DNA from: Smithella sp.
Lineage (GTDB): Bacteria; Desulfobacterota; Syntrophia; Syntrophales; Smithellaceae
Assembly: GCA_017993615.1 (NCBI GenBank)
Contig: JAGOMJ010000001.1
Location: forward strand, 25,425-89,424
DNA length: 64,000 nucleotides
Reading direction: 5' to 3'
Shown here: positions 30,780 to 52,631 of the stretch, piece by piece
Numbering within the stretch: position 1 is the stretch's first letter
Layout of the letters: each line of letters begins with the position of its first letter
The notes under the pieces: generated by a model
The model's database searches: none
What the model saw: only the letters and a program-made list of their open reading frames with translations
What the model was told of the DNA's origin: nothing
Position numbers and translations under genes: made by a program

Positions 30780-31101
30780 CAATTTTACCTCCAAATGAAG
30801 TGAAGTGGGTGACGAAATCAAACTGTTGTGCTGTCTTGTTCTCCCGTGTAAAAAACCCTTCCACGGTCGTTGATTATCATAAAATAACCCGGTAGAGAAA
30901 CAAAACTTCATCGGGTGTCCGCCGGTGCCAAAGAGGACTTTGTTTTTGCCCGTCTGGCTTGACGGAGAGTTGATTCCATCAATAAACGATTTGCCATGAA
31001 AAGGAAATTGTGTAATAATATTAAATTATGATGCAGTTCATTCATCACGATGGTTCCGCAATAAAAATGCAGTTACAATTATGACTGTCGGGAGGTTATG
31101 C

Positions 31102-31665
31102 ATGTCCAATGTAGAAAAAGTCAAAGGGACAATGCTCATTGATCAGGTTCGCATGATCAGGGGGAATAAGGATAAAGATTGGCGCAATTATCTGACGTCT
31201 GAAGACTGGGCAATCGTCAAGGGGATGGTTATGCCGGCCTCATGGTATCCTGTCGAAACATATAAGCGATGCGGACGGGCTGTTTTTCAGGTTCTTGCGG
31301 GCGGCAATACGGATATTGTGCGTTTGAGGGGCAAAATGCGCGGGAAAGAGTTGTTTGAGACAACCTACAAGCACCTCCTGATGGAACGCTATCCGATGAA
31401 CGCTCTTAGTTCCTTTGTGAACCTTTACGGACAGCTTTTTATGCCCAATCCGCTGGGATTCAAAAAAATGACGGATAAGCATGCGCACGTATCATACGAG
31501 TACGAAGACAAAAATGACCCCGGTAATTTACCGTTTTGTTATCAATTAATGGGACATTTTGATTCACTGATTGAAATGACGGGAGGCGCTGACGTTAAAA
31601 TAGAGTTTGCAAAAAAAATGTGGGAAGGCGCCAGCGAAACGGTTTTTGATATTCAATGGCAGTAG
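31102..31665 (+). CDS. Hypothetical protein, DUF2378/HNOB-like fold suspected (paralogue 1)
   Basis: 187 aa with GGGAGG RBS. Architecture is similar to the next gene. Confidence 0.45.
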   Translation: MSNVEKVKGTMLIDQVRMIRGNKDKDWRNYLTSEDWAIVKGMVMPASWYPVETYKRCGRAVFQVLAGGNTDIVRLRGKMRGKELFETTYKHLLMERYPMNALSSFVNLYGQLFMPNPLGFKKMTDKHAHVSYEYEDKNDPGNLPFCYQLMGHFDSLIEMTGGADVKIEFAKKMWEGASETVFDIQWQ

Positions 31666-31716: not shown

Positions 31717-32277
31717 ATGAATGTAAAAGGCATCATTTTTAATACAGGAAAATCAACAATCATTAAAGTATTCGGTCAGGGGCCCTGGGATGCGTTTATG
31801 ACCAAACTGGTGGCTAAAGACAAATTTTTCGGGAATGTAATCATGTCCGTCACGCCCATTCCGCTGGATAAATTCATTTTTTTCCTGGATGAACTGGTCA
31901 AGGAATTTTTCAACAACGATATGATGCAGTACGTGACCTTCGGCAAAGTGGCCGCCCAGTTCGCGCTGTCGCCGGACGGTCTGTACAAATCATATCTGCT
32001 GACCAAAGATACCAAACAATTCGTCGAATCGGTTATGCCCAAGTTCTGGTCGACCTATTTTGACGAAGGCACGGTGACCACGAAATATGAGAACAATATC
32101 ACCCACCTCAAAATCACAGGTCTCAATTTCAGACATAATTATTTCGAATACCTGATCATGGGATTTTTTCAGAAATCGCTCAAAATGTTCGGGAAGAAAA
32201 ACGTTCCCAAACGGATCAGAAGCCGCGCATCGGGCGATGACGATGTTTATTTCCAGTTTGAATTAAAAGATTCTTAA
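31717..32277 (+). CDS. Hypothetical protein, DUF2378/HNOB-like fold suspected (paralogue 2)
   Basis: 186 aa. The N-terminal MNVKGIIFN is reminiscent of HNOB-type domains, but no YxSxR haem motif is present. Confidence 0.45.
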   Translation: MNVKGIIFNTGKSTIIKVFGQGPWDAFMTKLVAKDKFFGNVIMSVTPIPLDKFIFFLDELVKEFFNNDMMQYVTFGKVAAQFALSPDGLYKSYLLTKDTKQFVESVMPKFWSTYFDEGTVTTKYENNITHLKITGLNFRHNYFEYLIMGFFQKSLKMFGKKNVPKRIRSRASGDDDVYFQFELKDS

Positions 32278-32454: not shown

Positions 32455-33300
32455 TTAGATATAGTTGTGCAGGCTGGTTAGAAAATTCACACCCAGATAA
32501 GTAAATAAAACAGACACGAACCCGACAATCGTCATCATGGCCATGCGCCGGCCGCGCCAGCCGCGGACAAAGCGGGCATGCAGCATAATGGCGTAGATAA
32601 GCCACGTGATCAGGGACCATATCTCTTTGGGATCCCAGCTCCAGTATGAGCCCCAGGCATAGTGCGCCCAGACGGAACCGGTGATAATCCCCATGGCCAG
32701 AAAAATAAATCCGAGTGATGTGCTCTGATAGATCAGAACATCCAGTGTGTTCAGCACGGAAGAATTTTCCTTCGGATGAGACGCAGGGTTGGTTTCTCTT
32801 GTTTCTTTTTTTTCCGTCCAGAGATAAAGGAGTCCGCAGCCGAAAGCAACCGTGAAGGCGGCATAACCCATAAAGCAGGTTAAAACATGAGTCGTCAGCC
32901 AGTTGCTTTGCAGCGCGGGAATCAGCGGTTCGATGCTGTGATCGACCCCCGGTGCGATGGAAGCGTAAGCCATGACAAAAAAAGCCACCGGGACGACAAA
33001 CGTGCCGAGAATTCTGCTTTTGATCCGCCACTCAATGGCCAGATAGAGCATTATGATGGACCAGGCGAAGAAAACCAGAGACTCATACAAATTGGTAATC
33101 GGCACGTGTCCGAATCCCAGGTCGTAGGAAGCTCTCCATCGCAACATCATGGCCAGCGTGTGCGCGAAAAGTCCCAGCCACGCCAGCAAGGATGCCGCGT
33201 ATCCCCAGAATTCTTTTTTCAAAATCATTCTGAACAGATAAAAAACAAAGGAAGCAAAATAAATAAACGTCACGTAACTTAAAATCAGCGTGTGGTTCAT
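32455..33300 (-). CDS. ccsA: Cytochrome c biogenesis protein CcsA/ResC (System II)
   Basis: Trp-rich WAHYAWGSYWSWDPKE (WWD-type) motif. ATGA overlap with ccsB. Confidence 0.9.
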   Translation of the reverse strand: MNHTLILSYVTFIYFASFVFYLFRMILKKEFWGYAASLLAWLGLFAHTLAMMLRWRASYDLGFGHVPITNLYESLVFFAWSIIMLYLAIEWRIKSRILGTFVVPVAFFVMAYASIAPGVDHSIEPLIPALQSNWLTTHVLTCFMGYAAFTVAFGCGLLYLWTEKKETRETNPASHPKENSSVLNTLDVLIYQSTSLGFIFLAMGIITGSVWAHYAWGSYWSWDPKEIWSLITWLIYAIMLHARFVRGWRGRRMAMMTIVGFVSVLFTYLGVNFLTSLHNYI

Positions 33301-34634
33301 GCCGCCAGCTCCTTTTCCATCCATGCGCACAAATCATCAAGTCGCCTCTGCAACGCTTCGTTATAACGATGACTGCGCCCGGCCACGCGGATTCTGACGC
33401 CTGCCGGATCCTGTTCCAGCAGAAACCAGATACGCCGATACGCAATGAAAAAGATGACCATCATGCCGGCGATCAGAATCAATCCGCCGGCCAGAACAAA
33501 CGGGACACCCGGATCGCGGACAACCTGTAACCCGGTGTAATATTTTCCTTCAATCCCCCGGAGAGAAAAAACCAGGGGTTTGAAAAGGCCCGGATTAAAA
33601 AGAGGGACGGCGGAAAATAAGCCGGGGTTTACATCCGCGATATCCTGAATATGCTGAAACACCCAGAACTGGATATTTCTCTTGTCCGTTTCAATATTTA
33701 GTTTTACGGCCGGACCGAACTGCATCATATTTTCTTCCACGCGCAAAACGGTGGCCTTTGCCTTCTGAACGGGAAGATCAAACGTGTCTCCCTGTCCTGC
33801 TGAGATTTCCGGGCTCTCCGCTCCGGCGTTGCTGTATGTCAGACGGGCTCTGCTTTTTTCAGAGACACCGTAGCTTGCCTGATAAAAACGCAGGCCGTCA
33901 AACGATAGCGGATGATTGACCAGCACAGAACCCTGACGCACGACCTGTCCATTTTTGATGAAACTTAACTCCGATCGATAGGTTTTTGGGACTCCTGTGT
34001 CATAAAATTCCACAACAAATTTGTCGCATCGAACGGAAAAATCAAGCGGGTGTTCACCCTCGCCATTCCGCAGCTGGATAATGTTTGTTTCTTCGCCTTC
34101 GGAAAGTCTGAGATCCGCCTCAAGACCGAACACTGAGCCGATCACCATGCCCGCAATAATCATCAAAACGCCAAGATGGACAACGTAAACGCCGAACAGG
34201 GATAGGCGCCCCGATTCGCGATAAAGCATTTTCCCCTTTTCCAGCTTTGTTTCTTTAACCGAAAATAGTTTCGATTTGAGAAGAGATTCGACCGCGCGGC
34301 TGACGGTTTCCATCTTTTTATCCGTCACGATTATCCGGTTTGGAGCAAGATTTTCAAACAGCCCGGAAGGTGGCGGGAAAGAGGGCGTCTTGTATTGTTT
34401 TATGGCGAAAGGAATTCGTTGGATGGAGCAAACCATCAGATTCAGTGAGAAAAGCCCCATCAACACATAAAACATTTTGGAATGATAAAGGTCATTGAGC
34501 CAGAGCCATTCGGAATCCATTCTCTGCGGCGGCACCAGCGTGGCCACAATAAAGATCACCACCATGAAAAAAAGCAAAACGATGGCAAGTTTGACGGAAG
34601 CAAGAAAAGACCAGATGAAATTCGCTTTTTTCAA
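33297..34634 (-). CDS. ccsB: Cytochrome c biogenesis protein CcsB/ResB (System II)
   Basis: 445 aa with ResB-like topology: N-terminal TM segments, a large periplasmic loop and a C-terminal TM. Coupled to ccsA. Confidence 0.85.
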   Translation of the reverse strand: MKKANFIWSFLASVKLAIVLLFFMVVIFIVATLVPPQRMDSEWLWLNDLYHSKMFYVLMGLFSLNLMVCSIQRIPFAIKQYKTPSFPPPSGLFENLAPNRIIVTDKKMETVSRAVESLLKSKLFSVKETKLEKGKMLYRESGRLSLFGVYVVHLGVLMIIAGMVIGSVFGLEADLRLSEGEETNIIQLRNGEGEHPLDFSVRCDKFVVEFYDTGVPKTYRSELSFIKNGQVVRQGSVLVNHPLSFDGLRFYQASYGVSEKSRARLTYSNAGAESPEISAGQGDTFDLPVQKAKATVLRVEENMMQFGPAVKLNIETDKRNIQFWVFQHIQDIADVNPGLFSAVPLFNPGLFKPLVFSLRGIEGKYYTGLQVVRDPGVPFVLAGGLILIAGMMVIFFIAYRRIWFLLEQDPAGVRIRVAGRSHRYNEALQRRLDDLCAWMEKELAA

Positions 34635-34825
34635 TGGTTTCTGCCCTTAAAGAAAAGAAAATTTTTCCAGAAAACTTAACATCTAATGTGCTTTCTGTCA
34701 AAGAGTACCTTGCTCAGACAGCCCGGACGAACTTCTTGACAAAACAACCGGTTTACCTTATCGTTTAATTGTCTTTCAGTGTTTTATTGATGTGATTGTC
34801 GCAGCAATTCAACAAGGAAAATGAT

Positions 34826-36091
34826 ATGGCCGATTCCGGCAAAAAGCGGTTCCTCCCACATATCAAATCTGCCTTTGAACGCGTCTTATCCGGTGGATGG
34901 ATTTATCTCTTGTTTGTCGGCCTGTTCGGTATTTTTCTTCTCATAGGAATTGGTGCCGGGATTCATGCGTTGTTTATCGCCGGCAGCCGTCATGCCTACG
35001 CGACATCACGGGAAATTCCCGTTGCCATTCTGATTGCCACGTATGTTTTTTTTGTTGTCGCTTCAACGGGGCTTTGTCTGGTGTCGTCACTGGGACATGT
35101 CTTCGGCGTGGAAAACTTCCTGCCCCTGGCGAAACGTTGTGTTTACCTGGCGATCATTACCATTCTTTCCGGATTCCTGGTGATCGGCCTGGAAATTGAA
35201 AATCCTTTCCGCATGGCGATATACAACGTTATTTCGCCCAACTTCTCTTCCAATATCTGGTGGATGGGAACCCTGTACGGGTTTGCCGTCGTTTTTCTGA
35301 CGATTGAATTCATTCTTCTGTTTAATGAAGCGCACCACCATAAAGCTGTCATTGCCGGTTTCCTCGGCGTCATTACGGAAGTCGCCGCCAACAGCAACCT
35401 GGGCGGTGTTTTCGCGATGATGCATGGGCGCCCTTACTGGTACGGCCCTTATTTCCCCGTTTATTTTATTTTATCCGCCCTTATTACGGGCTGCGCTTTT
35501 ATTCTGTTTTTCTTTTTTCTCGCCCACAAAGCGGTCAACAAAAAACCATTCATGGAATCGACGCAAACCGCTCTGAAAGCCGTATCGAAACTGACGCTGC
35601 TTTTGCTGGCCGTCATGATGATCTTCACCGCGTGGAAGGTTTTGACGACCTCCGTTGGCAGTCCTGCCGCCGCCGCCGCGTTGAGCGTGTTAACTGAAGG
35701 ACCCTATTCATTCAACTTCTGGACCATTGAAATCCTTGTCGGAATGGTCATTCCTTTTGTTTTAATTCTGGCATCAAGAGGCAGGAATCTGACGGTCATG
35801 TTCATCGCCGCCGTCATGATGATTTTCAGCCTTTTCTTCACCCGTCTGGATATGGTGGTTGTCGGACAGATTGTCCCGCAATATTTTGAAGTGGGTGTTG
35901 TGGAATATTCCAAATTGCATACCTATTCTCCGAGCATTCACGAAATCCTTGTGGTGCTGGGAGGGATAAGTTTCTGCCTGCTGGCATTTTTGCTGGGTGA
36001 AAAAGTATTTTCCGGTTTCGCAGATTCACCGCAGACCGACATCATGAAAGAAAAAACAACGGACGTTGCCGGAGTGGAAGAACTGACATGA
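34826..36091 (+). CDS. NrfD/PsrC-family polytopic quinol-interacting membrane subunit
   Basis: About 10 TM segments. 4-nt overlap with the downstream NrfC-like gene. ATG at 34826 is preferred to the TTG at 34796. Confidence 0.8.
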   Translation: MADSGKKRFLPHIKSAFERVLSGGWIYLLFVGLFGIFLLIGIGAGIHALFIAGSRHAYATSREIPVAILIATYVFFVVASTGLCLVSSLGHVFGVENFLPLAKRCVYLAIITILSGFLVIGLEIENPFRMAIYNVISPNFSSNIWWMGTLYGFAVVFLTIEFILLFNEAHHHKAVIAGFLGVITEVAANSNLGGVFAMMHGRPYWYGPYFPVYFILSALITGCAFILFFFFLAHKAVNKKPFMESTQTALKAVSKLTLLLLAVMMIFTAWKVLTTSVGSPAAAAALSVLTEGPYSFNFWTIEILVGMVIPFVLILASRGRNLTVMFIAAVMMIFSLFFTRLDMVVVGQIVPQYFEVGVVEYSKLHTYSPSIHEILVVLGGISFCLLAFLLGEKVFSGFADSPQTDIMKEKTTDVAGVEELT

Positions 36092-36825
36092 CGGATAAGG
36101 CGAGCCATAAAAATATTCCGGAATCTCCGCTTGATGCTGAACGGCGGGCATTTCTGAAAATCGGTCTGAAAATTACCGGCGTGCTCGCCGGCGGCTCAAT
36201 ATTGTCTTTAGTCTCCAACATCAACAAGGCTTATTCTCTTGATCTTTTTCGGGAGAAATACCCTTATAAACCTCATTACGCGATGGTGTTAAGACAGGAC
36301 CGCTGCATTGATTGCGAAAAATGCATGAAAGCCTGTATTGAAACCAATCATGTTCCGGATTACGGCTGGCGGACAAAGATTTTAAAACGCGACCTTTCGT
36401 CGGCGCTTGATCAGAAATGGGAATTTATTCCCATCCTCTGCAATCAATGCAACAATCCTCCGTGCGTGCGCACCTGCCCGACGACGGCGACGTATAAGGA
36501 TAAGACCAACGGCATCGTGCAGATGAACAACAAAAAATGCATCGGGTGCAAATCCTGTATTATGGCCTGCCCCTACGATGCCCGCTATTATAATGAAGAA
36601 AAAGGTGCCATTGATAAATGCGATTTCTGTTTTGAGTCCAGGCTGTCCAAAGGCATTAATACCCCGGCCTGCGTTGAAGCCTGTCCCTCGGATGTCCGTA
36701 TTTTCGGAGATTTGTCGGATCCGTCCAGCAGAGTGTTTCAACTTGTTCACCAGTTGCAAAGACCTGTGTGGGTGCTGCGGCAGGAGATCGGTGCGAAACC
36801 GAATATTTTTTATATGAAGGGTTGA
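36088..36825 (+). CDS. NrfC/HybA-type 4x[4Fe-4S] ferredoxin subunit with Tat signal
   Basis: Twin-arginine ERRAFLKIG. Four Cys clusters: CIDCEKCMKAC, CNQCNNPPCVRTC, CIGCKSCIMAC, CDFC...CVEAC. Confidence 0.88.
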   Translation: MTDKASHKNIPESPLDAERRAFLKIGLKITGVLAGGSILSLVSNINKAYSLDLFREKYPYKPHYAMVLRQDRCIDCEKCMKACIETNHVPDYGWRTKILKRDLSSALDQKWEFIPILCNQCNNPPCVRTCPTTATYKDKTNGIVQMNNKKCIGCKSCIMACPYDARYYNEEKGAIDKCDFCFESRLSKGINTPACVEACPSDVRIFGDLSDPSSRVFQLVHQLQRPVWVLRQEIGAKPNIFYMKG

Positions 36826-36835
36826 TGATTCAGCA

Positions 36836-38647
36836 ATGAAAAGAAATCTTGTTCTTATAATTCTTCTCGCTCTTTTCTGCATCGCCAATGTCGGTTCTAC
36901 CGGAAAAAGCAGTTTTTCCGACGGCGGTGGCATTCTGTATACGCAGCCGGTGAAATCCGTTATTTTCCGCCATCAGCATCATGTGGATGTAAAAAAAATA
37001 AGTTGTGAGAAATGCCACAGCGGCTTGTTTGAAATGCAGGCTTTGCTTGCCCAGGAGAAAAAGGATTTTATTATGGATTCTCTCTACAAGGGCAGGTACT
37101 GCGGCGCGTGTCATAACGGCAAAGACGCTTTTGCATCCGATAAACAGTGCGCCAGATGCCATGTCCGCATCAGCGAAAAAGATGTGGGGCACGTGAAAGG
37201 TAAAGCCAAGCCATACAAAGCGCCTGTTTACAGTACGGTGGCCACTTTGGGAAAAGACCAGCGGAAGGTCCCGTTCAACCACGAAAAGCATGCGTCGCTG
37301 AATTGCATGGATTGTCATTCGAAACTTTTTCAAATCAGAAAAGGATCAACCAAGATTGCCCTGGAAACGCATCAGTCGCAAAAATATTGCTTTAACTGTC
37401 ACAACGGGAAAAAAGAGTTTTCCTGGAACAATTGTACAAAATGCCATCAGAACTGGAAGGATATTAAACCGTACGGTATTCTGACGGCAAGAGCCGACAG
37501 AGGAAGCTGTGTTGCCTGCCACACCAATCCGGATGAAATGAAATCGCTCGTCAAGCCGCCCGAAATAGGCGGCGAGGCCGAGGGGTGAGCTGGCGCTCCT
37601 CCCCCGGTCCGGGCGGAAGAATACTACAAAGGTTATCTGGTCGATAAAGGAATGATCGGCAAGGAGTTCCATCTTTCGATGGATTGCATTGCCTGTCATC
37701 AAGGCAACAAGCTCGCAAAAACAAAGGAGAAAGCTCATCAAGGACGTATCGCCAGACCGTCCGACAATCTTAAAACCTGCGGCATCTGTCATATAACAGC
37801 CGGACAAAATTACGCCAAGGCCCTTCATTATACGAGCCTGGGCCAGCGCGAAGGCGTCAAACACCGGTTTTCTGCGGCAGAATTGAAAACGTTTGATCAG
37901 AAAGTTTTTGAAAAATCATGCCGATCCTGTCACGCTTCCTGCGGAAGCTGCCACGTCAAATCGCCGCCTGTCGGCGGCATCACCACCGGCCTTCTCCAGG
38001 GCCATAAATTTGTGAAGAAAAACGAAGGCAAAACCTGTGCTTCATGTCACGGTGGAAGAGTATATCCCGAATTTACCGGTGAATACGGCGGCACCCCTGA
38101 TGTCCACTACCAGAAGGGCATGATGTGCAATGACTGCCACAACAAACAGGAAATGCACGGCGACGGCAAATTATATAAATCAAAAAATGATGTCAAAGAC
38201 CGCCCGAAATGCCTGTCCTGCCATCAGGATAAAGGCAATCAGGTCGCGCACACCATTCATAAGGATAAAGTCAGCTGTCAGGGCTGCCATTCTTCCGGCC
38301 AATATCGCCAGTGTTATAGCTGTCATGCCGTGCATGGGTCAAAGGCCGAGCCCGGCTTTATCCTGGGGCTGAATCCGCGTGACCGCAAGACCTTGACAAC
38401 CCTCAGGGTCATACCTACTATAAGAAGTACATTTGAGCCTAACGGAATAAAAATGGAGAATTTTGATGCTCTGCCCAATTACTGGAATTCGCCGGTGCAC
38501 AACATTAAAAAGCGAACAAACAGGACACGCTCCTGCGATGCATGCCATGTGAATAAAGAAGGTTTCCTGAAACCTGAAGGGCTGATTAAAGACGGATCTA
38601 AAGAAAATGAGAAACTAATTTATGACATTAAACCAATAAGCAAATAA
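36836..38647 (+). CDS. Candidate selenocysteine-containing 17-haem c-type cytochrome (7-haem N-part including two c7-like trihaem repeats, U251, 10-haem C-part)
   Basis: Track ORFs 36836-37588 and 37652-38647 share one frame and are separated only by the TGA at 37586-37588. There is one Sec signal peptide, at the N-terminus only. 17 CxxCH motifs. A SECIS-like hairpin lies downstream of the TGA. Confidence 0.6.
37599..37616 (+). promoter_or_regulatory. SECIS-like GC-rich hairpin
   Basis: CCC-CGGUCC-GGG with extra flanking pairs. GGUC lies at +21..+24 from the U of UGA, the same spacing as in the Prx gene. Confidence 0.4.
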
Positions 38648-38663
38648 AAACAGGAGGATCTTT

Positions 38664-39590
38664 ATGAAAAGAATGAGGTTTTTGAAAGTGTTGTTGGTAT
38701 CCCTGTTGATTTTACTGCCGGCAGCCGTGCTGGCGCAGGGACTCAGCCCTATTGTTTCGACAGATGATTTAGCCAAAATTGTAAAGGATCCCAACGTCAT
38801 TGTCATTGATATCCGCAAGGTTGAAGATTATAAAGCGGGGCATATTCCCGGCGCGATAGGGGTGTTTTATAATAATTGGGCACCGGGCATGGGCGGCTTA
38901 AAAAATGAAATGCCGGCAGATGATGATTTAATGGACCTTCTTACCGATAACGGCATTCAACCCGACTCAACGGTCGTCGTTTACGGCACTACAGGAACTC
39001 CGCCTGATCGTGTGGATGTGACCCGCGTGGCCTGGGCTTTGAAATACGCAGGCGTCCAGAAGGTATCTGTACTGAGCGGCGGATTTGAGAAATGGGCGGT
39101 GCGCGAGAAAAAAGAAGTTTCTACAGAGATTACCAAGCCCAAGACCAAAGATTACAAAGGTAAAATCAATAAAGCCATTCTGGTTAACAAGGATTACGTG
39201 AAAAATCACGTCGGAAAAGCGATGATCGTTGACGCACGGGAACCGGCATTCTTTAAAGGCGAACAGAAACTTCCTTTCGTGGCCAAAGCCGGTCGAGTCA
39301 AGAATTCGGTCAATCTGCCCACCATTCAGGTTTTCGACAAATATCCCCCCGGCGAGCATATGGAGCCCTGCTGCTGGACATATAAAGATGTCGCCACGCT
39401 CAAAAACATTGCTTCAGGTGTCGTTGGCAGTGACATCGACAAGGAAATCATTGTCTATTGCGACACCGGGAAAGTTGCCAGTGCCTGGTGGTTCATTTTA
39501 AGTGATGTGATGGGTTTCAAAAATGTGAAAATTTATGACGGTTCCATGGAAGAATGGATGAATGATGCAAGCGCTCCGACGGAACCGTAA
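38664..39590 (+). CDS. Exported tandem-rhodanese sulfurtransferase
   Basis: Signal peptide LLPAAVLAQG. Two rhodanese domains. Active-site loop VYCDTGKVAS. Confidence 0.85.
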   Translation: MKRMRFLKVLLVSLLILLPAAVLAQGLSPIVSTDDLAKIVKDPNVIVIDIRKVEDYKAGHIPGAIGVFYNNWAPGMGGLKNEMPADDDLMDLLTDNGIQPDSTVVVYGTTGTPPDRVDVTRVAWALKYAGVQKVSVLSGGFEKWAVREKKEVSTEITKPKTKDYKGKINKAILVNKDYVKNHVGKAMIVDAREPAFFKGEQKLPFVAKAGRVKNSVNLPTIQVFDKYPPGEHMEPCCWTYKDVATLKNIASGVVGSDIDKEIIVYCDTGKVASAWWFILSDVMGFKNVKIYDGSMEEWMNDASAPTEP

Positions 39591-39610
39591 AGCATAAAGA
39601 ACATCATGAA

Positions 39611-39647
39611 AAAAAGCAGCCCCATCGTTTTATGGGGCTGCTTTTCT
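39611..39647. terminator. Bidirectional rho-independent terminator
   Basis: AAAAA-AGCAGCCCCAT-cgtttt-ATGGGGCTGCT-TTTC, between the convergent rhodanese genes. Confidence 0.85.
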
Positions 39648-39668
39648 ATTGAACGTTAAACAGACTTT

Positions 39669-40592
39669 CTATTTAGGCGTGACGTTGGCGTCGGCGTTTT
39701 TTGTAATCGGTGCCTGAGGATCCTGCATCCATTCCTGCATGGCGCCATCGTATAGACGGACGTTTTTATAGCCGAGGACTTCCACCAGAATATAAGACCA
39801 GATCGGGCAGCACTGACCGATGTCGCAATAGGTTATAATTTCTTTTTCCTTATCCCTGCCGATAGCGGCTTCGGAAATCGCCGCGAGTTCTTCCGTGGTT
39901 TTAAATGTTTTGTCAGGATTAAAGGCGCAGGAAGTCGGCATGTTAAAAGCTCCCGGGATTCGTCCCATCATGGGAATACAATCCATCTTTTTCTCGCCGG
40001 TAAAGAACTCTCGTTCTCTCACATCCAGCATAATAGCCTTGCCCAGCCGTTCTTTAACGTAATCTTTGTCGGCAAATCTCGCTCTTGAGTAGAGGCCTTT
40101 GAATGGTTTTGCTTTTGCGTGCATGATCTCCTGCGAAAGCGGTTTCTTTTCAGTAATCCATTTATTCATCCCGCCGTTAAGAACGGCTACATTTTTTATT
40201 CCTGCGTATTGCAGGGTGCAGGCGACACGGGCGCTTTGATAACTCAGCCGCGGCGTATCCATGCAACCGGTGACGACAATCCGCGAGTCAAACCCGATTC
40301 CGAAGTAGCCTATGGTATCATCCAGGTCATCCGTTTCGGGGATCTCCGTAAAAAGACCGTCTTTCTGGTATGCCCATGATCTGTAAAACGCGTTTAGCGC
40401 GCCGGGAATGTGTCCCTCTCGGTAATCCTCAACTCGGCGAACATCCAGGATAATCAATTTCGGATTCTTCAAATTTGCCAAAAGCCAGTCGGTGGATACA
40501 ATCGGCTCGATGTCACGGGTTTGACCGGCTATCGGCAATAAAAGGATAAAAAGAAGGATCGTAAGGAGCTTGGACAAAGCATGATTTTTCAT
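39669..40592 (-). CDS. Exported tandem-rhodanese sulfurtransferase (paralogue)
   Basis: Start MKNHALSK with AAGGAG 8 nt upstream. Signal peptide present. Active-site loop TYCDIGQCCP. Confidence 0.85.
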   Translation of the reverse strand: MKNHALSKLLTILLFILLLPIAGQTRDIEPIVSTDWLLANLKNPKLIILDVRRVEDYREGHIPGALNAFYRSWAYQKDGLFTEIPETDDLDDTIGYFGIGFDSRIVVTGCMDTPRLSYQSARVACTLQYAGIKNVAVLNGGMNKWITEKKPLSQEIMHAKAKPFKGLYSRARFADKDYVKERLGKAIMLDVREREFFTGEKKMDCIPMMGRIPGAFNMPTSCAFNPDKTFKTTEELAAISEAAIGRDKEKEIITYCDIGQCCPIWSYILVEVLGYKNVRLYDGAMQEWMQDPQAPITKNADANVTPK

Positions 40593-40725: not shown

Positions 40726-41271
40726 TTACCGAATATGACGGTCTATTTCCCCCATCAGCGTCTGCGTCTGATCGGGCAACAGCGCGAATCCCATGTCATT
40801 CCTGTAAATGATGTTCATTTTTTTATCGACAATCACATACACGCGTTTGGAAAGGGGCAAAAGCCAGTGGTCGGCGTCGTAGAGCTTGGCGATTTTGCCT
40901 TTTTCATCCACCAGCAGAGTCATGTTTTTCAGGCTGTGCTTGGCTATAAACTTGCGGTGCGATTCGGCCGAATCCCGCGACAGGCCGAGAATTTTGATTT
41001 TTTTGGCTTTGTATTTTTTAATATTTTGTTGAAACTCAACAAACTGGCGGATTCAAAGCTTGGTGTCGTCTTTGGGATAGAAAGCCAGTACCACGGCGCG
41101 ATGATTTTTGACAGCATTGCTGAGTTTCCATATGTTGCCCTTTTGATCGGACAATGTAAAATCAGGGGCTACCTGGCCGGAAACCGGGGAGGCGTTTTTT
41201 GCCCCTGTTGAAGCACAGGCTGACAATATAAAGAACACCAGCACAAAAAAAACGAATTTTGTTATTCGCAT
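40726..41271 (-). CDS. Candidate Sec-containing BCP-like peroxiredoxin lipoprotein (U73 at the peroxidatic position)
   Basis: Track ORFs 41053-41328 and 40726-40923 are in one frame, joined by the TGA at 41053-41055: AFYPKDDTKL-U-IRQFVEF...ILGLSRDS. Lipobox ILSAC. GGAGGG RBS before MRITKF. Confidence 0.65.
41025..41043 (-). promoter_or_regulatory. SECIS-like hairpin
   Basis: RNA UUUGUUGA-GUU-UCAACAAA: perfect 8-bp stem starting at +13 from the U of UGA, with GU in the loop. Confidence 0.45.
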
Positions 41272-41339: not shown

Positions 41340-41951
41340 TTAATCGTCAAACGCCATTTTGGTTTTCCAAACTTCCCAGACCTTGCCTACCAGATCGGGG
41401 CCGGGTTTGAGCGTCGGCTTGCCGGGTTTCCAACCGGAGGGCGTGGCTTCGGCGCCTTTGGTTTTGCGCACGTGTTGGAAGGCCTGAATTTGACGGATGC
41501 TTTCCATGACGTTGCGTCCGACCGGCGGCGTCAACACTTCAAAGCCCTGAATGATGCCATCGGGGTCGATGATGAACCGGCCGCGGGCTTCCACGCCGGC
41601 ATCCTGAAGGTAAACGCCAAAGATGTCTCCGACCTTGCCGCCGCCGTCGGAGAGCATGGGGAAGGGGATGCCGCCTTTGACCATTTTGGAAAGTTCATGA
41701 TCATCCCACATTTTGTGGACAAAGACGCTGTCCACACTCATGGATAAAACTTCAACGCCGAGTTTTTTGAATTCGGGATATTTCTCGCCGACCGACGAGA
41801 TTTCGGTTGCTCAGACGAAGGTGAAGTCGCCCGGATAAAAACACAGGACAACCCATCTCCCCAGATAATCGGAGAGCTTCAGATTGATGAATTTCCCCTT
41901 GTGATACGCGGGCGCCGTGAAGTCCGGCGCTTTTTTCCCTACAGTGACCAT
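41340..41951 (-). CDS. Sec-containing AhpC/Prx1-type peroxiredoxin (U47 replaces the peroxidatic Cys)
   Basis: Track ORFs 41811-42065 and 41340-41741 are in one frame, joined by the TGA at 41811-41813: [23 protein letters not shown] lies before [11 protein letters not shown]. Confidence 0.8.
41783..41800 (-). promoter_or_regulatory. SECIS-like hairpin
   Basis: RNA UCUCGUC-GGUC-GGCGAGA: 7-bp stem and GGUC tetraloop at +21..+24, resembling the fdhF apical loop. Confidence 0.6.
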
Positions 41952-42085
41952 GCTTTTGACCTCCTTGACAGGTGTTGGTTGAGACGTTTCTTTCTTCGCA
42001 TCCGGTTTTTCGCCGACCGGTCCGCCGGTGGGTCTGGCACAGCCGGCCTTGATTTCTTCAGCCATAGATGATTCCCTCCTTTGTT

Positions 42086-42400
42086 TTATTTTTTTGATTT
42101 CTTCATTTTCGCGATTTCTTCCTCCACTTCCTCAGCGCCTTCCGCATAGAATTTTCCTTCATCGGGGGCCAGTTCATGAAGCAATCTTAAAAACTCTCCG
42201 GCGTGAACGCGTTCCTCGTCGGCAATGTCCCCGAGGACCTCGATGGCCAGCTTGTTGTCGGTTGATTCCGCGAGCTGCATATAAAGTTGGATGGCTTCAT
42301 ATTCTGCCGCCACCATAAAGCGAATGGCTCTGATCAGTTCTTCTTTGGTCAGTTTCCTGTCCTTCTTCAACCCTGAAAAAGGTGTTCCAAACTCCGGCAT
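42086..42400 (-). CDS. Small ferritin-like/rubrerythrin-family protein (EncFtn-like sequence, no encapsulin nearby)
   Basis: [10 protein letters not shown] ... [11 protein letters not shown] di-iron-type ExxH pattern. 20 nt upstream of the Prx gene. Confidence 0.65.
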
Positions 42401-42509: not shown

Positions 42510-44210
42510 TTACTTCTCCCTCGGGAACGGCCAAGCCATAATGCCGCCTTCCATCACTTTGACGTTTTTCCAGCCGTTGCCTTCCAGTGCCAGCGCCGCC
42601 TCATAACCGCGCAGTGAAATCTTGCAGTATAAGATGATTTCGCGATTTTTATCCTCCGGCAGCTCCTTGAGGCGCTTACGGATCGCGCCGAGCGGTATCA
42701 ACGTCTCACCGATGCCTAAACGCATCTCTTCGAATTCCTCCGGTCCGCGTGTATCAATCAGGAATGGTTTCTCTCCGGCCCGTATTTTATCATAAACCTC
42801 TTTACAACTGATACCTTTCATTCTGCCTTTCATTTTATTCTGCATGATGTGCGCCGTGGCGATAAAATGATCAATGGCCAGAGAGAAGGGCGGCGCGTAG
42901 GGAAGATCGGCGTTAATCAGGTCTTCCACGGTCATTTTCCCCTGAATGGCCATGGCCCACTGGGCAATTTGCTTGGCGACGTTTCCCGGACCGATGCATT
43001 GTGCGCCGAGGATACGGCCGGTTTTTTGCTCCGCCACCAGTTTAGTGACCAGAAGCTTGCCTTCCATAAAGCCCGGTTTGTCGGGACTGGCGTTGATGAC
43101 CGTTATGATGTCGGAATAGCCCAGGCGTTTGGCCATTGTTTCCGAAAGGCCGGTGGAGCCCGCCCCGTAATCGAACACTTTGCAGATGCCGGTTTGAATC
43201 GTTCCCGGGAAAGTGACGCTGTTGCCGGAAGCGGCGTTTTCTCCCGCTATTCTTCCCTGGAGATTGGCCAGATCGCCGTAAGGCGCGTGGACTTTTTTGC
43301 CGGTGATGCGGTTGAGGGTTTCCACGCAGTCGCCCACGGCGTAAATGTCCGGGTCGGAGGTCTGCATGTATTCATTGACTTCAACGCCGCCAAGCTCGCC
43401 GATTTTCAACCCGGCTTCTTTGGCCAGTGTGACGTTGGGACGGACACCGATGGCTATAACGGCCAGCTCGCAGGGAAGCTCCGTTCCGTTTTGCAGTTTC
43501 ACCGCTGTGAGTTTTCCGTTTTCACCCAGGAAAGCGGCTATGCCGTTTTCGGTGATGATGTTGGCGCCTTTGCTCCGCACATGGTTTTCCACCAGCTTGG
43601 CCAGTTCCCAGTCCAAAAACGTCAGCAGTTGAGGAAGCAGTTCAATGACGGTGATTTCAATACCCGCCAGTTGCAGCGCTTCGCAGGTTTCGATACCGAT
43701 GAGTCCGCCGCCGATGACCACGGCCTTTTTGATTTTGCCTTCATCGCGGACGTTACGCAGAAAATCGGCGTCCTTCATGGATTGTAATGTGGTAATGCCC
43801 TGGAGATCTGTGCCCGGAACCGGCGGCATTCGGGGAACGGCGCCGGTGGCGATAACGAGTTTGTCATACGTCAGGGTGCCGGTTTCTCCGGAAACCGTAT
43901 TTTTGAAGGAAACGGAACGGTTTTTCGTGTCGATGTTAGTGACTTCGGTGTTGACCTTCGCTTCGATATCTTTGGCGTTGAGGTAAAACATCGGATTGCG
44001 CACGACGCCCGCGGGCGTGCAAAGTAGCGCGTTGCGGTCGTTAAAAAAACCTCCGACGTAATACGGGTAGCCGCAGGACGCCATGGAAAGGTCGGCTTCC
44101 TTCTGGATAATGATCACTTCCGCGTCGTTGTCAATGCGCCGGGCTTTCGCCGCTGCTTTGGGACCGGCAGCCGAACCTCCGATAACAATGATTCGTTTTC
44201 TCTGAGCCAT
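42510..44210 (-). CDS. CoA-disulfide reductase / NADH-dependent persulfide reductase-like flavoprotein with C-terminal rhodanese domain
   Basis: GGSAAG FAD site, redox Cys in SMASCGYPYY, second Rossmann motif VVIGGGLIG, C-terminal rhodanese loop LYCKISLRG. Confidence 0.85.
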   Translation of the reverse strand: MAQRKRIIVIGGSAAGPKAAAKARRIDNDAEVIIIQKEADLSMASCGYPYYVGGFFNDRNALLCTPAGVVRNPMFYLNAKDIEAKVNTEVTNIDTKNRSVSFKNTVSGETGTLTYDKLVIATGAVPRMPPVPGTDLQGITTLQSMKDADFLRNVRDEGKIKKAVVIGGGLIGIETCEALQLAGIEITVIELLPQLLTFLDWELAKLVENHVRSKGANIITENGIAAFLGENGKLTAVKLQNGTELPCELAVIAIGVRPNVTLAKEAGLKIGELGGVEVNEYMQTSDPDIYAVGDCVETLNRITGKKVHAPYGDLANLQGRIAGENAASGNSVTFPGTIQTGICKVFDYGAGSTGLSETMAKRLGYSDIITVINASPDKPGFMEGKLLVTKLVAEQKTGRILGAQCIGPGNVAKQIAQWAMAIQGKMTVEDLINADLPYAPPFSLAIDHFIATAHIMQNKMKGRMKGISCKEVYDKIRAGEKPFLIDTRGPEEFEEMRLGIGETLIPLGAIRKRLKELPEDKNREIILYCKISLRGYEAALALEGNGWKNVKVMEGGIMAWPFPREK

Positions 44211-44459: not shown

Positions 44460-45653
44460 TTACGATGATGCGGGCGATATTTCAGCATCAACGTGCCTCA
44501 ACGGAAGCGTGGGATGTTTTATGAAAGCCCTGATGAAAAGGGGAATCCTTCGGGATAACGGTTTGGTGATCGTATCCCCGTAGGCTTTCAGCAACTCATC
44601 CGGCATGTAGTGAAGCTTTATTCCCGCAATTCTGTTGGTGAAGGAGAGCGTGATAAAACATCCGGGGCAGTTGACGGCCATATCTTTCATTCCGGTTTCC
44701 TTCACTTCTTTGTATTTTTTCCACTGTTCCTTGAAGAGACTTTTCGGAAGATTAAGGGTCCGGAGAACGCTCACGGCCCCGCAGGAAAGGTTGCACTCTC
44801 CATGATGGGGGAGTTCCACTATATCGGCGCCCGCTGATTTGTAAACGGCGCGAAGGTCGCGGGCAAAGCCGTCACCCAGTTCGCTGACATAACATGATTC
44901 ATGGAGGGTCGTCTTTAGTTTCAACGGTTGTTTTACTGTGATCTTGCCGGATTCTCTTTTTTCATTCAGCCATTCATACAGGGAAATCAATTTGAATGGC
45001 AATTCCCTGCCGTATACATTTTTCAGTATATTGGATAGATAGTTGTAGCAGGATCCGCAGTAGCAAACCATTCTCTCGATATTCAATTTCTCAAAAGCTT
45101 TCAGGGTTTTTTCAATCGTTTCGGTGTAGGCTTTCCATGAACCGAGACGGTATGCAAGCTCACCACAACAGAGATCCGGCGGCCCGAATTTCGGCAGTTC
45201 CTGTAAAACAGCGGAGTTTTCAATATCGAAACAACTTATTCTGCCGATGCATCCGACCCACAGAATTTCTTTTGAAGGCGGTGGAATTTCCGACCATTTT
45301 TTCAATATGGATTGTTCCTCCCTGGAAAGCATGGCATAAATATCCTTCCACATTGACATTTTCATGCCGTTGAAGAGATAGGGGTAGACAGCGGATATCT
45401 TTCCTTTCTTCTTCCTGTTCTCCATGAACTTCTCCAGAATAAATTCATGAAGTCTTAACCCCTCGGGGCAATAATTATTGCAACTGAAGCAGAACGTGCA
45501 TTCCCTGAAAATTTTTTCCGAGTAACCGGTTTTCAATAATCCGGTCATTTCAGCAACGGCCTCGGGCTTGTCCATGTGCATCACGGGACATTGGACAAGA
45601 CATTCACCGCACGTCGTACATTTATTCCAATCCGATAATTTGGCATATGACAT
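44460..45653 (-). CDS. HdrD/GlcF-like Fe-S protein (2x[4Fe-4S] + CCG domains)
   Basis: CTTCGECLVQCP and CTFCFSCNNYCP clusters, followed by Cys-rich CCG-type repeats (DLCCGE, CPGC). Confidence 0.75.
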   Translation of the reverse strand: MSYAKLSDWNKCTTCGECLVQCPVMHMDKPEAVAEMTGLLKTGYSEKIFRECTFCFSCNNYCPEGLRLHEFILEKFMENRKKKGKISAVYPYLFNGMKMSMWKDIYAMLSREEQSILKKWSEIPPPSKEILWVGCIGRISCFDIENSAVLQELPKFGPPDLCCGELAYRLGSWKAYTETIEKTLKAFEKLNIERMVCYCGSCYNYLSNILKNVYGRELPFKLISLYEWLNEKRESGKITVKQPLKLKTTLHESCYVSELGDGFARDLRAVYKSAGADIVELPHHGECNLSCGAVSVLRTLNLPKSLFKEQWKKYKEVKETGMKDMAVNCPGCFITLSFTNRIAGIKLHYMPDELLKAYGDTITKPLSRRIPLFIRAFIKHPTLPLRHVDAEISPASS

Positions 45654-45672
45654 AATACATGTTCCCCCTTTT

Positions 45673-46407
45673 CTATCTGAATTGACGAATAACCCATTCA
45701 AGTTTCTGGATACGCGCCGCAGACCATGCAAAAAATTTTTGCCAGAGCCCGGCGCTTTTTATCTCATGCGTCGAATGCGTGTTTCGATCTTCTTTGTGTG
45801 AGTGTAATTCTTTTAATAACGGCAGTAAATGCAGATTATTGCTCCGTTCATGGATAATGTGCCATACGCAATTTATTTGCGGATCGAGCGCGCATTTCAA
45901 GTTTGATTCTGAATAGGATTTGCAGGGGCCGTATTTGCTTTTTGCGGGACATTCGCTCAACGGACAGATTCCAGCGGTGCAGGTTAGCACGCAATGTCCG
46001 CAGCTTCTGCAGAGGCTATGTGCAATAACCGGATCGCTGCTGGAAACTGCGGCGCTTCCCACGGAATCCAGCACATTGATTACAGGCAAATCCGGCCGAC
46101 AGCTATTCGCTGATTTTATTCCCGCCGCGCAACTCAAAACGATCAATGCATCACACTTTTCGAGGGCCTTTTTGTTGGCCCTCAACGCCTGACGCATTAT
46201 TTCTTCGGGACAAGCGGCAAGAATGACTTTGTCCAGTTTGATCTGTTTGTGATTTTTCAGCAGATGCGCTTTCAGAACTTCCACGCCGGTCTTGCCGCCC
46301 GTGTAGGAAAGATTGGCGCATGTTCCACAACTCAGAATGCCGAATGTTTTATAATCTTTTAGTATGAGATTAATTTCCGGCTCCGGTTTCCAAATGGTTT
46401 TATTCAT
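45673..46407 (-). CDS. MTHFR_C-like (MetV-type) Cys-rich protein
   Basis: CRSCGHCVLTCTAGICPLSECPAKSKYGPC resembles the methylene-THF reductase C-terminal domain. Confidence 0.55.
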   Translation of the reverse strand: MNKTIWKPEPEINLILKDYKTFGILSCGTCANLSYTGGKTGVEVLKAHLLKNHKQIKLDKVILAACPEEIMRQALRANKKALEKCDALIVLSCAAGIKSANSCRPDLPVINVLDSVGSAAVSSSDPVIAHSLCRSCGHCVLTCTAGICPLSECPAKSKYGPCKSYSESNLKCALDPQINCVWHIIHERSNNLHLLPLLKELHSHKEDRNTHSTHEIKSAGLWQKFFAWSAARIQKLEWVIRQFR

Positions 46408-49483: not shown

Positions 49484-49488
49484 TTATT

Positions 49489-49872
49489 TTATTGATTAAG
49501 ATAATCTTCACAAGCCGCTTTTAACGTATTGGTCGCCAGAAGCGCGCAGTGTTCGTGATCTTCGGGAAGTCCGTCAAGAACATTGAGAACATCCTTTTGA
49601 CTTATTGCTTGGGCTTCCTCAATCGATTTTCCCTCGGCCATACAGGTTGTCATGCTGCCGCAGGCACGCGAAGGATCACAGCCATCGGTGATAAAAGAGA
49701 CTTTCCTGATTTTGCCTTCTTCAACCAGAATCCAGAACTCCATGGTGTCGCCGCAGGGTCCGGTAATTCTCGCGTGTCCGCTAAAAGAATCCATCGGTCC
49801 CATATTATGAGGCGAATCGGCATGTTTTTTTGCCGTGGCATAAGTTTCGTCCAGATTTACTAACTCACTCAT
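49489..49872 (-). CDS. NifU-N/IscU-like Fe-S scaffold protein
   Basis: GPCGDTM, DGCDPS and EHCALLA motifs. Confidence 0.8.
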   Translation of the reverse strand: MSELVNLDETYATAKKHADSPHNMGPMDSFSGHARITGPCGDTMEFWILVEEGKIRKVSFITDGCDPSRACGSMTTCMAEGKSIEEAQAISQKDVLNVLDGLPEDHEHCALLATNTLKAACEDYLNQ

Positions 49873-49883
49873 TATTTACCTTC

Positions 49884-51406: not shown

Positions 51407-51415
51407 TCCTTCATC

Positions 51416-52366: not shown

Positions 52367-52367
52367 T

Positions 52368-52625: not shown

Positions 52626-52631
52626 TTGTTC

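Follow-up and report, generated by a model that had tools for sequence, protein, structure and literature searches.

Between positions 32455 and 40592 of a 64-kb stretch of a Smithella sp. genome (GenBank assembly GCA_017993615.1, contig JAGOMJ010000001.1, positions 25,425 to 89,424; hereafter the window), we found a compact gene cluster whose central member, a 17-haem c-type cytochrome, almost certainly carries a selenocysteine (Sec) encoded by an in-frame TGA. Until August 2026 a single multihaem selenoenzyme, MccSep of Geobacter, had been characterised. The window cytochrome apparently belongs to a second family of Sec multihaem cytochromes, hitherto undescribed, which is paired with a rhodanese and occurs widely among syntrophic Desulfobacterota. 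By analogy, we tentatively regard the cluster as a menaquinol-linked periplasmic reductase of sulfane sulfur (polysulfide or protein persulfide) built of interchangeable modules, a reading to which we give slightly less than an even chance. What the cluster acts on, which way its electrons flow and how Sec reacts are inferred from the co-conserved parts and from two known systems, MccSep/ExtH of Geobacter and Psr/Sud of Wolinella.

An earlier description of this DNA, made from the sequence without database searches (hereafter the original prediction), had proposed a tight nrfD-nrfC-cytochrome-rhodanese cluster with a second exported rhodanese, divergent cytochrome c biogenesis genes and a Sec residue in the cytochrome. 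Open reading frame (ORF) listing, translation and Pfam/NCBIfam scans recovered all of these features at or within a few bases of their predicted positions. The arrangement is not a chance juxtaposition, because it recurs in many related genomes.

Selenocysteine in the cytochrome

The cytochrome gene (36836-38647, forward strand) starts 11 nucleotides after nrfC and is interrupted at codon 251 by a TGA (37586-37588), which we read as Sec (U251) in the motif GEAEG-U-AGAPPPVRAEEYYKGY. To place this codon in a wider context, we collected 98 locus records (90 distinct) from a scan of close relatives and a profile scan of species-representative genomes. The aligned codon was TGA in 95 of the 98 records, the others being CGA in two assemblies with an identical flanking peptide and GCA in one, and TGA was retained across clades at 55-90% identity. 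The encoded peptide is conserved on either side of the codon, as CxxCH-T-x3-(M/L)K-x-L-x-KPP-x4-6-EG-U-AGAPPPV(R/K)AE(E/D)(Y/M)YKGY, and the motif of the core family is EGEG-U-AGAPPPV.

Three further observations agree with Sec. A hairpin resembling a selenocysteine insertion sequence (SECIS) begins 11 nucleotides past the UGA (37600-37617, forward strand), with a stem of 6-7 bp and an invariant GU in its apical loop. Across 23 diverse sequences 92% of the stem cells were paired, with one compensatory pair; as the stem-loop shares nucleotides with the conserved PPPV(R/K)AE codons, its covariation is weak, and we take it as supporting, not decisive, evidence. In six distant relatives (P0131, P0133, P0136, P0138, P0157 and P0174) the Sec column is occupied by Cys, an exchange that typically marks a residue active in redox chemistry. 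Within the close Syntrophales clade we saw no Cys form; the members that deviate from Sec there have Ala, Arg, Ser or Tyr. Finally, the host decodes Sec: the two peroxiredoxin genes adjoining the cluster both carry TGA at the canonical peroxidatic position, which the NCBI annotation reads through.

If the TGA were instead a true stop, the locus would encode a heptahaem cytochrome of 250 aa, and what follows would be a remnant that is untranslated or has its own start. Automatic annotations do give two ORFs, of 250 aa and of 322 or 331 aa. Nevertheless, peptide conservation runs on without a break across the codon, the part 3' of the TGA has neither a signal peptide nor a start codon of its own (the first ATG lies 21 codons on, inside conserved sequence), and in the stand-alone forms described below the upstream ORF would amount to a mere signal peptide plus one haem site. 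We therefore rejected this reading as extremely unlikely; the continuity of the peptide and the clade-wide retention of TGA come close to refuting it.

Since the NCBI annotation splits the gene at the TGA into ORFs of 250 and 322 aa (331 aa for the latter in another annotation), the cytochrome has gone unrecognised as a selenoprotein there. The family at large is either divided into two 'cytochrome c3 family' ORFs or mislabelled as a sulfurtransferase. In locus L002 (GCA_035380885.1), positions 10749-12560 correspond to window positions 36836-38647, and the Sec cytochrome is likewise split into two ORFs in public annotations. The JGI label 'thiosulfate/3-mercaptopyruvate sulfurtransferase' is attached to the cytochromes P0020, P0024, P0042, P0161 and P0276, and the same mislabel was reported for DealDRAFT_1917 of Dethiobacter (PMC10376724).

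Haem sites and domain structure

The original prediction had spoken of a 17-haem cytochrome. The gene does encode 17 CxxCH motifs, and a motif scan detected no variant haem sites (CxxCK, CxxxCH, CxxxxCH or longer spacing); as a type of protein, however, it is a lineage-specific combination of a six-haem carrier and an 11-haem Sec core. The N-terminal part (36836-37480, forward strand; the first ~215 residues), which comprises a signal peptide and two c7-type trihaem domains with haems 1-6, matches TIGR04257 at 127-132 bits (cut-off 40) and the 'nanowire' cytochrome GSU1996 (PDB 3ov0) with an E-value of 1.8e-36. The Sec core (37508-38647, forward strand) runs from CVACH at residue 225 through the stop codon and holds haems 7-17.

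Most relatives encode the core on its own (the stand-alone form), as an exported protein of ~400 aa with a signal peptide, one haem site, the Sec loop and ten haem sites in that order. The fusion with c7 domains is confined to one Smithella-centred clade (18 of the 90 distinct loci). If a locus has both a stand-alone core and NrfCD, nrfD-nrfC is followed by a (c7)n cytochrome gene of its own, and the Sec cytochrome and rhodanese are encoded apart from it. The window cytochrome is thus a fusion of the NrfCD-associated c7 carrier with the 11-haem Sec core. Because the two are joined in the window lineage, direct electron transfer between the c7 carrier and the Sec core would be implied.

The core contains 11 CxxCH motifs, nine invariant non-motif His residues and not a single Cys outside CxxCH. 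Nine His for 11 haems means that at least two core haems have a non-His distal ligand or none. Met540, 95% conserved, is one candidate for such a ligand, and Sec could be another. With no spare Cys and with Sec only ~20 residues past a haem site, there is room for a Sec-haem centre, in which the selenolate of U251 would serve as the distal axial ligand of a core haem (a His/Sec haem c) or sit directly over a five-coordinate haem; we consider this doubtful. Should it be true, a Sec-ligated or Sec-capped haem would be a kind of catalytic centre without natural precedent, and the widespread Syntrophales enzyme would provide syntrophic bacteria with a quinol-linked sulfur electron sink, in other words a cryptic sulfur respiration so far unrecognised in methanogenic ecosystems.

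The cytochrome could be placed in no characterised enzyme family, in agreement with the original prediction: in protein and profile searches against PDB the c7 domains (3ov0) gave the only solid match. Among the remaining PDB matches, those to NrfA, octahaem nitrite reductase, cytochrome c552 (5ze8), UndA and MccA were marginal and dominated by haem motifs, and we rejected homology to them. Membership in the ExtM, ExtN, ExtO, DmsE and GSU2203 families was rejected as well, the NCBIfam scores being 18-38 bits against cut-offs of 192-800.

The tandem rhodanese partner

Seventeen nucleotides or so past the cytochrome gene, as predicted, lies the gene for an exported tandem rhodanese of 308 aa (rhodanese 1; 38664-39590, forward strand), which has a signal peptide and two PF00581 domains (E-value 4.5e-35). 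Its N-terminal domain is inactive, and the catalytic loop, YCDTGK, is found in the C-terminal domain. A second exported tandem rhodanese (rhodanese 2; 307 aa; 39669-40592, reverse strand; PF00581, E-value 4.6e-33; loop YCDIGQ) also has a signal peptide and is 44% identical to the first. The two genes converge on a common bidirectional terminator, as had been proposed: a hairpin recognised by eye at 39616-39641 (GCAGCCCCAT-cgtttt-ATGGGGCTGC) lies between an A-run and a T-run.

An orthologue of rhodanese 1 adjoins the cytochrome in 75 of the 88 distinct Syntrophales loci with room for a rhodanese, either 13-113 nucleotides downstream or ~260-510 nucleotides upstream of it. Every orthologue printed (38 of the 71 aligned) has the catalytic loop YCD[TS]G[KR]; the orthologues retain the signal peptide, and their N-terminal domains have no Cys at the equivalent loop position. 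Orthologues of rhodanese 2 (68-87% identity) occur near the cluster in close Smithella relatives and in some more distant Syntrophales loci, in varying positions, which marks it as the less conserved of the pair. The predicted two-rhodanese module accordingly stands for rhodanese 1, which is widely kept, and not for rhodanese 2, which is found mainly in close relatives. Neither protein is an equivalog of ExtH (NF040901, 64.6 bits against a cut-off of 200; the window pair scores a weak 63-65 bits) or of SseA (NF008557, 83 bits against 250), and the best NCBIfam match is a 3-mercaptopyruvate sulfurtransferase model.

Two independent members without Sec, which have Ala (L028) and Arg (L029/L075) in its place, have no adjacent tandem rhodanese. 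Both keep a 650-aa multihaem cytochrome and a shorter rhodanese two genes downstream. Sec and its rhodanese may have been lost together in these loci, albeit the sample is small and several TGA-bearing loci also have no tandem rhodanese.

Membrane module and haem attachment

Upstream of the cytochrome, nrfD (34826-36091, forward strand) encodes an NrfD/PsrC-like integral membrane subunit of 421 aa expected to interact with quinol, with ~9-10 hydrophobic segments and a clear match to PF03916 (E-value 1.3e-21; 78 bits, cut-off 25.8). The start of nrfC (36088-36825, forward strand) overlaps its end by four nucleotides (ATGA). The product, an NrfC/PsrB/DsrO-like periplasmic subunit (Fer4_11, E-value 2.5e-25, 89 bits), carries the twin-arginine translocation (Tat) motif RRAFLK and four [4Fe-4S] Cys motifs at residues 73, 118, 151 and 178. 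A polytopic NrfD-family protein devoid of cofactor motifs and a Tat-exported four-cubane subunit together identify an NrfD/PsrC-like plus NrfC/PsrB-like quinol module. It is an equivalog of no named complex (NrfC/D, TtrB, DsrO/P, HmcB/C or QrcC/D), all matches lying under the curated cut-offs: NrfD fits HmcC best, at 43.8 bits and far under the cut-off of 550, and NrfC scores 185 bits against 378 for NrfC, 180 against 416 for TtrB and 176 against 200 for DsrO. An identical NrfC protein was found on contigs of two NCBI metagenome-assembled genomes (MAGs) and in many digester and sludge metagenomes.

Divergent from nrfD are the two genes of system II cytochrome c biogenesis, as had been claimed. 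Both components of this system are encoded: CcsB/ResB (Ccs1; 33297-34634, reverse strand; PF05140, E-value 2.1e-76) and CcsA, the ResC-type haem-handling subunit (32455-33330, reverse strand; PF01578, E-value 2.5e-54; TIGR03144, 275.6 bits, cut-off 187.6), the start of which is placed at 33300 by the NCBI and ENA callers. Wolinella succinogenes has second, specialised copies of system II, CcsA1 and NrfI, and MccA depends on a CcsA-type lyase dedicated to it. In the present cytochrome all 17 haem motifs are canonical CxxCH and call for no evident specialised lyase, which leaves the dedicated role that the original prediction gave to ccsBA a putative one.

Neighbours were counted in 47 loci in which the contig extends 8 kb or more to either side of the Sec cytochrome. 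Within 10 kb of it, ccsBA was present in 26 of these loci and NrfCD in 17. The gene set put forward in the original prediction is therefore co-conserved as regards the cytochrome and tandem rhodanese but only in part as regards NrfCD, for which other modules substitute: a multihaem-c/cytochrome b561 fusion in L042 and a separate cytochrome b in L106. The invariant unit, to judge from these genomes, is the Sec/Cys cytochrome plus one tandem rhodanese, to which a variable quinol module is attached, as would be expected of a terminal reductase that can be combined with different quinol dehydrogenases.

Locus variation and distant relatives

Locus L042 illustrates the cluster in a different form. 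A Tat-exported flavoprotein and cytochrome c3 precede the Sec cytochrome and its tandem rhodanese, which are followed by a 645-aa multihaem cytochrome, a further rhodanese, the multihaem-c/cytochrome b561 fusion, ccsB and ccsA. The L021 cluster has three rhodaneses in total, two of them placed, together with a CsoR-family regulator, before nrfD, nrfC, a c7x4 cytochrome and ccsBA. The CsoR family includes the persulfide sensor CstR, and the L021 regulator could be CstR-like. In both loci (L021, 7143-9695; L042, 7592-9756) the genes upstream of the stand-alone Sec cytochrome encode a fumarate-reductase-like, Tat-exported FAD_binding_2 flavoprotein and a tetrahaem c3.

One search yielded 666 matches to the core family, and in species-representative genomes we counted 541 stretches belonging to it; the family is found chiefly in Syntrophales, Smithella and Syntrophus among them. 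A superfamily profile search of 1.84 billion representatives (50%-identity library) returned 1130 relatives at E<=1e-3 and 131 at E<=1e-30. The distant members, 27-36% identical to one another, retain both the ten-haem core and the first haem site, which are joined by a variable linker. Six have the Cys mentioned above, and others no chalcogen residue in that column. Their named sources include Acidobacteriota, Calditrichaceae and Geobacteraceae, and none carries a functional name.

Four distant loci lay on contigs long enough for their neighbourhood to be judged, and in three of them a rhodanese stands beside the cytochrome homologue. L106 has an ArsR-type regulator, a Cys-type cytochrome, a cytochrome b and a rhodanese; in L109 the homologue and rhodanese genes overlap by four nucleotides; and L108 (Acidobacteriota MAG GCA_033578735.1, 3402-12978) has a multihaem cytochrome, an NrfA-like cytochrome, the homologue, a tandem rhodanese and a set of genes for a molybdopterin enzyme. 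In the Oryzomonas locus L107, no rhodanese adjoins the homologue. The NrfA-like protein of L108 is a Cytochrom_C552 member, and the molybdopterin set consists of a 919-aa oxidoreductase, an Fe-S subunit and a NarJ-like chaperone. The cytochrome-rhodanese pair may serve the Mo enzyme in that lineage.

Comparison with known systems

The closest known system is MccSep/ExtH of Geobacter. MccSep, the read-through product of gsu2937-2936 (ExtKL) in Geobacter sulfurreducens, is a periplasmic pentahaem selenoprotein (PMC13510729, Sci Adv 2026, Mihara et al.). It reduces polysulfide, its preferred and physiological substrate, and selenite less well, has no activity with thiosulfate, and is required for S0 respiration, with Sec being essential; this residue, U325, lies in a C-terminal immunoglobulin (Ig)-like domain beside a His/Cys-ligated haem (PMC13510729). 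The cluster extHIJKLMNOPQS, which also encodes the rhodanese ExtH, the porin ExtI, 12-, 10- and 4-haem cytochromes and a Rieske/cytochrome b module, was first linked to selenite and tellurite reduction (PMC5877670, Jahan et al. 2018). The main text of the MccSep paper makes no mention of Syntrophales or Smithella (PMC13510729).

The likeness in parts is extensive. In both systems a multihaem c-type cytochrome of the periplasm contains a single Sec, specified by an in-frame UGA with a SECIS-like hairpin behind it, and has relatives of the Cys type; its gene is accompanied by those for a rhodanese, additional multihaem cytochromes and a membrane module that oxidises quinol, and a Mo-pterin subunit is absent. 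Nevertheless, the MccSep chains (PDB 9WT8/9WT9) were unmatched by the window protein or the family profile at E<=10, and the ExtKL model NF040886 gave no match at E<=1. The differences extend to (i) haem count, which is 11 in the window core (17 with the fusion) and five in MccSep, where the conserved CxxCH motifs form an N-terminal cap; (ii) the Sec site, EG-U-AG 22 residues past the first core haem motif in one and DG-U-P in the Ig-like domain in the other; (iii) the conserved non-motif Cys that ligates the active-site haem of MccSep and has no counterpart in the window core; (iv) the quinol module, NrfCD or a cytochrome b fusion as opposed to the Rieske/cytochrome b type; (v) the porin, absent from the window cluster; and (vi) the rhodanese, a soluble tandem-domain protein here and a lipoprotein in the case of ExtH. 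By sequence comparison the window cytochrome therefore falls outside the MccSep/ExtKL family, while the parts lists are alike in functional terms. Two other cytochrome-type selenoprotein families listed in a 2026 selenoproteome review, GSU2204 (NF041027) and octahaem tetrathionate reductase (TIGR04315) (PMC13188914), were matched at E<=1 by neither the full-length protein nor the stand-alone homologue P0017.

The original prediction knew of no characterised system of this exact composition. We found no equivalog either, albeit Mo-less complexes of NrfCD with multihaem cytochromes are well established, namely NrfABCD, MccACD/SirACD, NhcABCD and Hmc (reviewed in PMC8076601). Like the window cluster, they combine an NrfD-like subunit, a Tat-exported four-cluster NrfC-like protein and a periplasmic multihaem cytochrome without a molybdopterin subunit, and MccA acts on a sulfur compound, as the window cytochrome probably does. 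Unlike the window system, however, they have no Sec and no obligatory rhodanese. NrfA has a CxxCK site and MccA a CX15CH site, neither of which occurs in the window cytochrome, and the matches of NrfA, MccA and HmcA to this protein were insignificant (NrfA/octahaem nitrite reductase, E >=0.003 over ~50 residues; MccA (4rkm) profile, E 0.27). The NrfCD half is of an established architectural kind.

Several other systems share single features with the cluster. In PsrABC of W. succinogenes, electrons pass from quinol through PsrC and an Fe-S subunit to PsrA, and Sud is a periplasmic carrier of polysulfide sulfur belonging to the rhodanese family. The route from quinol through an NrfD/PsrC-type protein and Fe-S clusters to a periplasmic catalytic subunit, with a rhodanese-family protein at hand, has a putative parallel in the window, but PsrA is a Mo-bis(pyranopterin guanine dinucleotide) enzyme and Sud a single-domain protein, in place of which the window has a Sec multihaem cytochrome and a tandem rhodanese. 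As the original prediction had noted, a molybdopterin catalytic subunit of the PsrA/PhsA/TtrA type is missing: we found none among the ORFs of the 64-kb window, in which the only ORFs of at least 566 aa encode a histidine kinase, PriA, a Na/H exchanger and the flavoprotein-rhodanese fusion described below. The distant locus L108, with its Mo enzyme beside the cytochrome-rhodanese pair, differs in this respect. TsdA, SoxAX and DsrJ are sulfur enzymes with a His/Cys-ligated haem. They too are c-type cytochromes that set a chalcogen side chain next to a haem for sulfur-sulfur bond chemistry, a placement that is putative for Sec here, and no homology between them and the window cytochrome was detected. 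Among the Cbc-type quinol oxidoreductases of Geobacter, CbcSTU is NrfCD-like and CbcL is a c/b fusion resembling that of L042, and the six N-terminal haems of the window protein are bona fide c7-type trihaem domains as in GSU1996. Polymers of the GSU1996 type and the Cbc oxidoreductases differ from the window system in being electron carriers or quinol oxidases with neither Sec nor a rhodanese partner.

Possible function

If the cluster is a sulfane sulfur reductase, the following course of events can be envisaged. NrfD would oxidise quinol in the membrane; NrfC, through its four [4Fe-4S] clusters, would hand the electrons to the six c7-type haems of the cytochrome, and from there they would reach the 11-haem core. 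The tandem rhodanese would be loaded with sulfane sulfur on the catalytic Cys of its YCD[TS]G[KR] loop and present it to the cytochrome. The selenolate of U251, in the Gly/Pro-rich loop just past the first core haem, would then attack this sulfur (or free polysulfide) to form a Se-S adduct, which electrons from the haem chain would split to release sulfide. CcsBA would serve to mature the 17 haem sites.

Several features speak for such a reductase. The tightest partner of the cytochrome in the sequence record is a rhodanese with an intact catalytic Cys; in MccSep/ExtH there is a precedent for a rhodanese and a quinol module beside a multihaem Sec polysulfide reductase; and the CsoR-family regulator with three rhodaneses in L021, as well as the lack of a Mo-pterin subunit in the window, would fit the same picture. 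The resemblance to the Geobacter ext cluster, pointed out in the original prediction, has proved apt, in that ExtKL (MccSep) has since been shown to reduce polysulfide and also selenite (PMC13510729). As a consequence, a periplasmic sulfur/selenium redox role is the best reading of the cluster.

Other observations weigh against a sulfane sulfur reductase. The function of the whole family is a prediction from sequence and gene neighbourhood. Smithella and its relatives have the reputation of syntrophs, not of organisms that respire sulfur, and electron transfer from menaquinol to polysulfide is thermodynamically tight. The cytochrome has no detectable similarity to MccSep, so that the analogy is a functional one only, and its Sec chemistry may differ, because the conserved non-motif Cys needed for a His/Cys haem is missing. 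The AlphaFold2 model is poor at the Sec loop (predicted local distance difference test, pLDDT, <50), and Foldseek returned no fold matches. Moreover, the few family members with Ala, Arg, Ser or Tyr at the Sec site show that the scaffold can function, or at least persist, without a chalcogen nucleophile.

How do other explanations compare? The cluster might handle selenium or tellurium, by reducing selenite or tellurite or by processing rhodanese-bound selenium, for detoxification or selenium supply. MccSep reduces selenite too and the ext cluster was first tied to selenite and tellurite (PMC13510729, PMC5877670), rhodanese is able to act as a selenium carrier (Ogasawara et al. 2001, cited in PMC5877670), both window rhodaneses bear a weak likeness to the ExtH model, and the window has at least three Sec genes no more than 6 kb apart. 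Nevertheless, we consider this role unlikely: polysulfide is the substrate that MccSep prefers and uses physiologically (PMC13510729), the ExtH scores of the rhodaneses are far under the cut-off, and a 17-haem link to a quinol dehydrogenase, widely conserved in Syntrophales, suggests respiratory-scale flux rather than a trace-element pathway. We also think it improbable that the cluster is a Mo-free thiosulfate reductase, in which the rhodanese would take the sulfane sulfur of thiosulfate, releasing sulfite, and the Sec cytochrome would reduce the persulfide to sulfide, giving the net reaction of PhsABC. Menaquinol-driven thiosulfate reduction is strongly endergonic and needs proton-motive force, and nothing links the cytochrome family to thiosulfate specifically. 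What recommends this idea is the two-domain rhodanese with its six-residue catalytic loop and its 3-mercaptopyruvate sulfurtransferase match, together with the multihaem cytochrome of Dethiobacter alkaliphilus that stands beside rhodanese-domain proteins and is up-regulated on thiosulfate (PMC10376724), a system that resembles ours in gene context. DealDRAFT_1917 is not among the named distant relatives of the cytochrome, and the thiosulfate inactivity of MccSep (PMC13510729) points the other way.

Reversal of the electron flow, with the cytochrome oxidising sulfide, persulfide or thiosulfate carried by the rhodanese and passing electrons through NrfCD to quinone in the manner of Qrc, Nhc or TsdA, strikes us as quite unlikely. 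The hosts are strictly anaerobic and have no evident acceptor of high potential to which quinol could pass electrons, and a syntroph gains more from an extra electron sink than from an extra source, even though a Tat-exported flavoprotein and cytochrome c3 are encoded upstream in related loci and the NrfD-type complexes Qrc and Nhc do reduce quinone with periplasmic electrons (PMC8076601). A role unconnected with sulfur, either as a carrier for extracellular or interspecies electron transfer or as a quinol peroxidase with Sec as the peroxidatic residue in an oxidative-stress island, is in our opinion very unlikely. The c7-type 'nanowire' domains are typical of electron-transfer chains, and the window cluster has two Sec-peroxiredoxins and a rubrerythrin-like gene as neighbours; nevertheless, the link to the rhodanese holds across phyla, no porin or outer-membrane cytochrome genes were found in the cluster, and the peroxiredoxin neighbourhood was seen only in the records of the window species (L001-L006), the coenzyme A disulfide reductase (CoADR) gene being the one member queried elsewhere. 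The remaining probability falls to something outside these readings.

Implications

The window family and MccSep show the same partnership with a rhodanese and a quinol module without sequence similarity, which points to convergent use of selenium and haem for sulfur-sulfur (or selenium) bond chemistry. If the cluster is indeed a sulfur reductase, key syntrophs of digesters and sediments would possess a respiratory outlet to polysulfide or elemental sulfur. The modelling of electron flow and sulfide formation in methanogenic systems would then change, and the selenium requirement of these syntrophic communities would become mechanistically testable.

Surrounding genes

On the rhodanese 2 side, the cluster is adjoined by a redox/persulfide island, and the Sec-peroxiredoxins and flavoprotein-rhodanese fusion named in the original prediction were found as stated. 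The first peroxiredoxin (40726-41271, reverse strand; 181 aa, AhpC/TSA type) has a lipoprotein-like signal, LSAC, and its TGA at 41053-41055 (TKL-U-IRQ). The second (41340-42065, reverse strand; 241 aa, 2-Cys-Prx type) has its TGA at 41811-41813 (FTFV-U-ATE). Both genes are fragmented by metagenome gene callers. Next come a cytoplasmic rubrerythrin-like ORF (42086-42400, reverse strand) and a gene for a cytoplasmic CoADR-type flavoprotein of 566 aa with a C-terminal rhodanese domain, similar to Npsr/persulfide reductase (42510-44210, reverse strand). The island as a whole was seen only in records of the window species, and the CoADR gene, queried more widely, lay near the cluster in three further loci (L007, L102 and L051).

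Farther along the reverse strand, 44460-46407 encodes a CCG/Fer4_8 (HdrD-like) protein and a DUF5981 protein. The run at 48572-54382 holds P-loop NTPase genes of the CbiA/ParA/NUBPL type, two of them with 4Fe-4S ferredoxin domains, as well as a radical SAM protein and an ORF without a family match, and looks like a metallocluster-maturation set.

The intergenic region between the divergent ccsB and nrfD genes (34635-34825, 191 nucleotides) contains a sigma-70-like TTGACA-17-TATCGT at 34736-34764; as the number of promoter matches in this region was not above the shuffled expectation, we treat it as a candidate only. The promoter and terminator scans gave counts not above those of shuffled sequence, and Rfam and tRNA scans of the window found nothing. 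On the ccsA side of the cluster, two adjoining genes (31081-31665 and 31717-32277, both forward strand) encode proteins of ~190 aa without a Pfam match or a signal peptide. This pair is kept beside the cluster in close Smithella relatives at another position, downstream of rhodanese 1 in L007 and L010.

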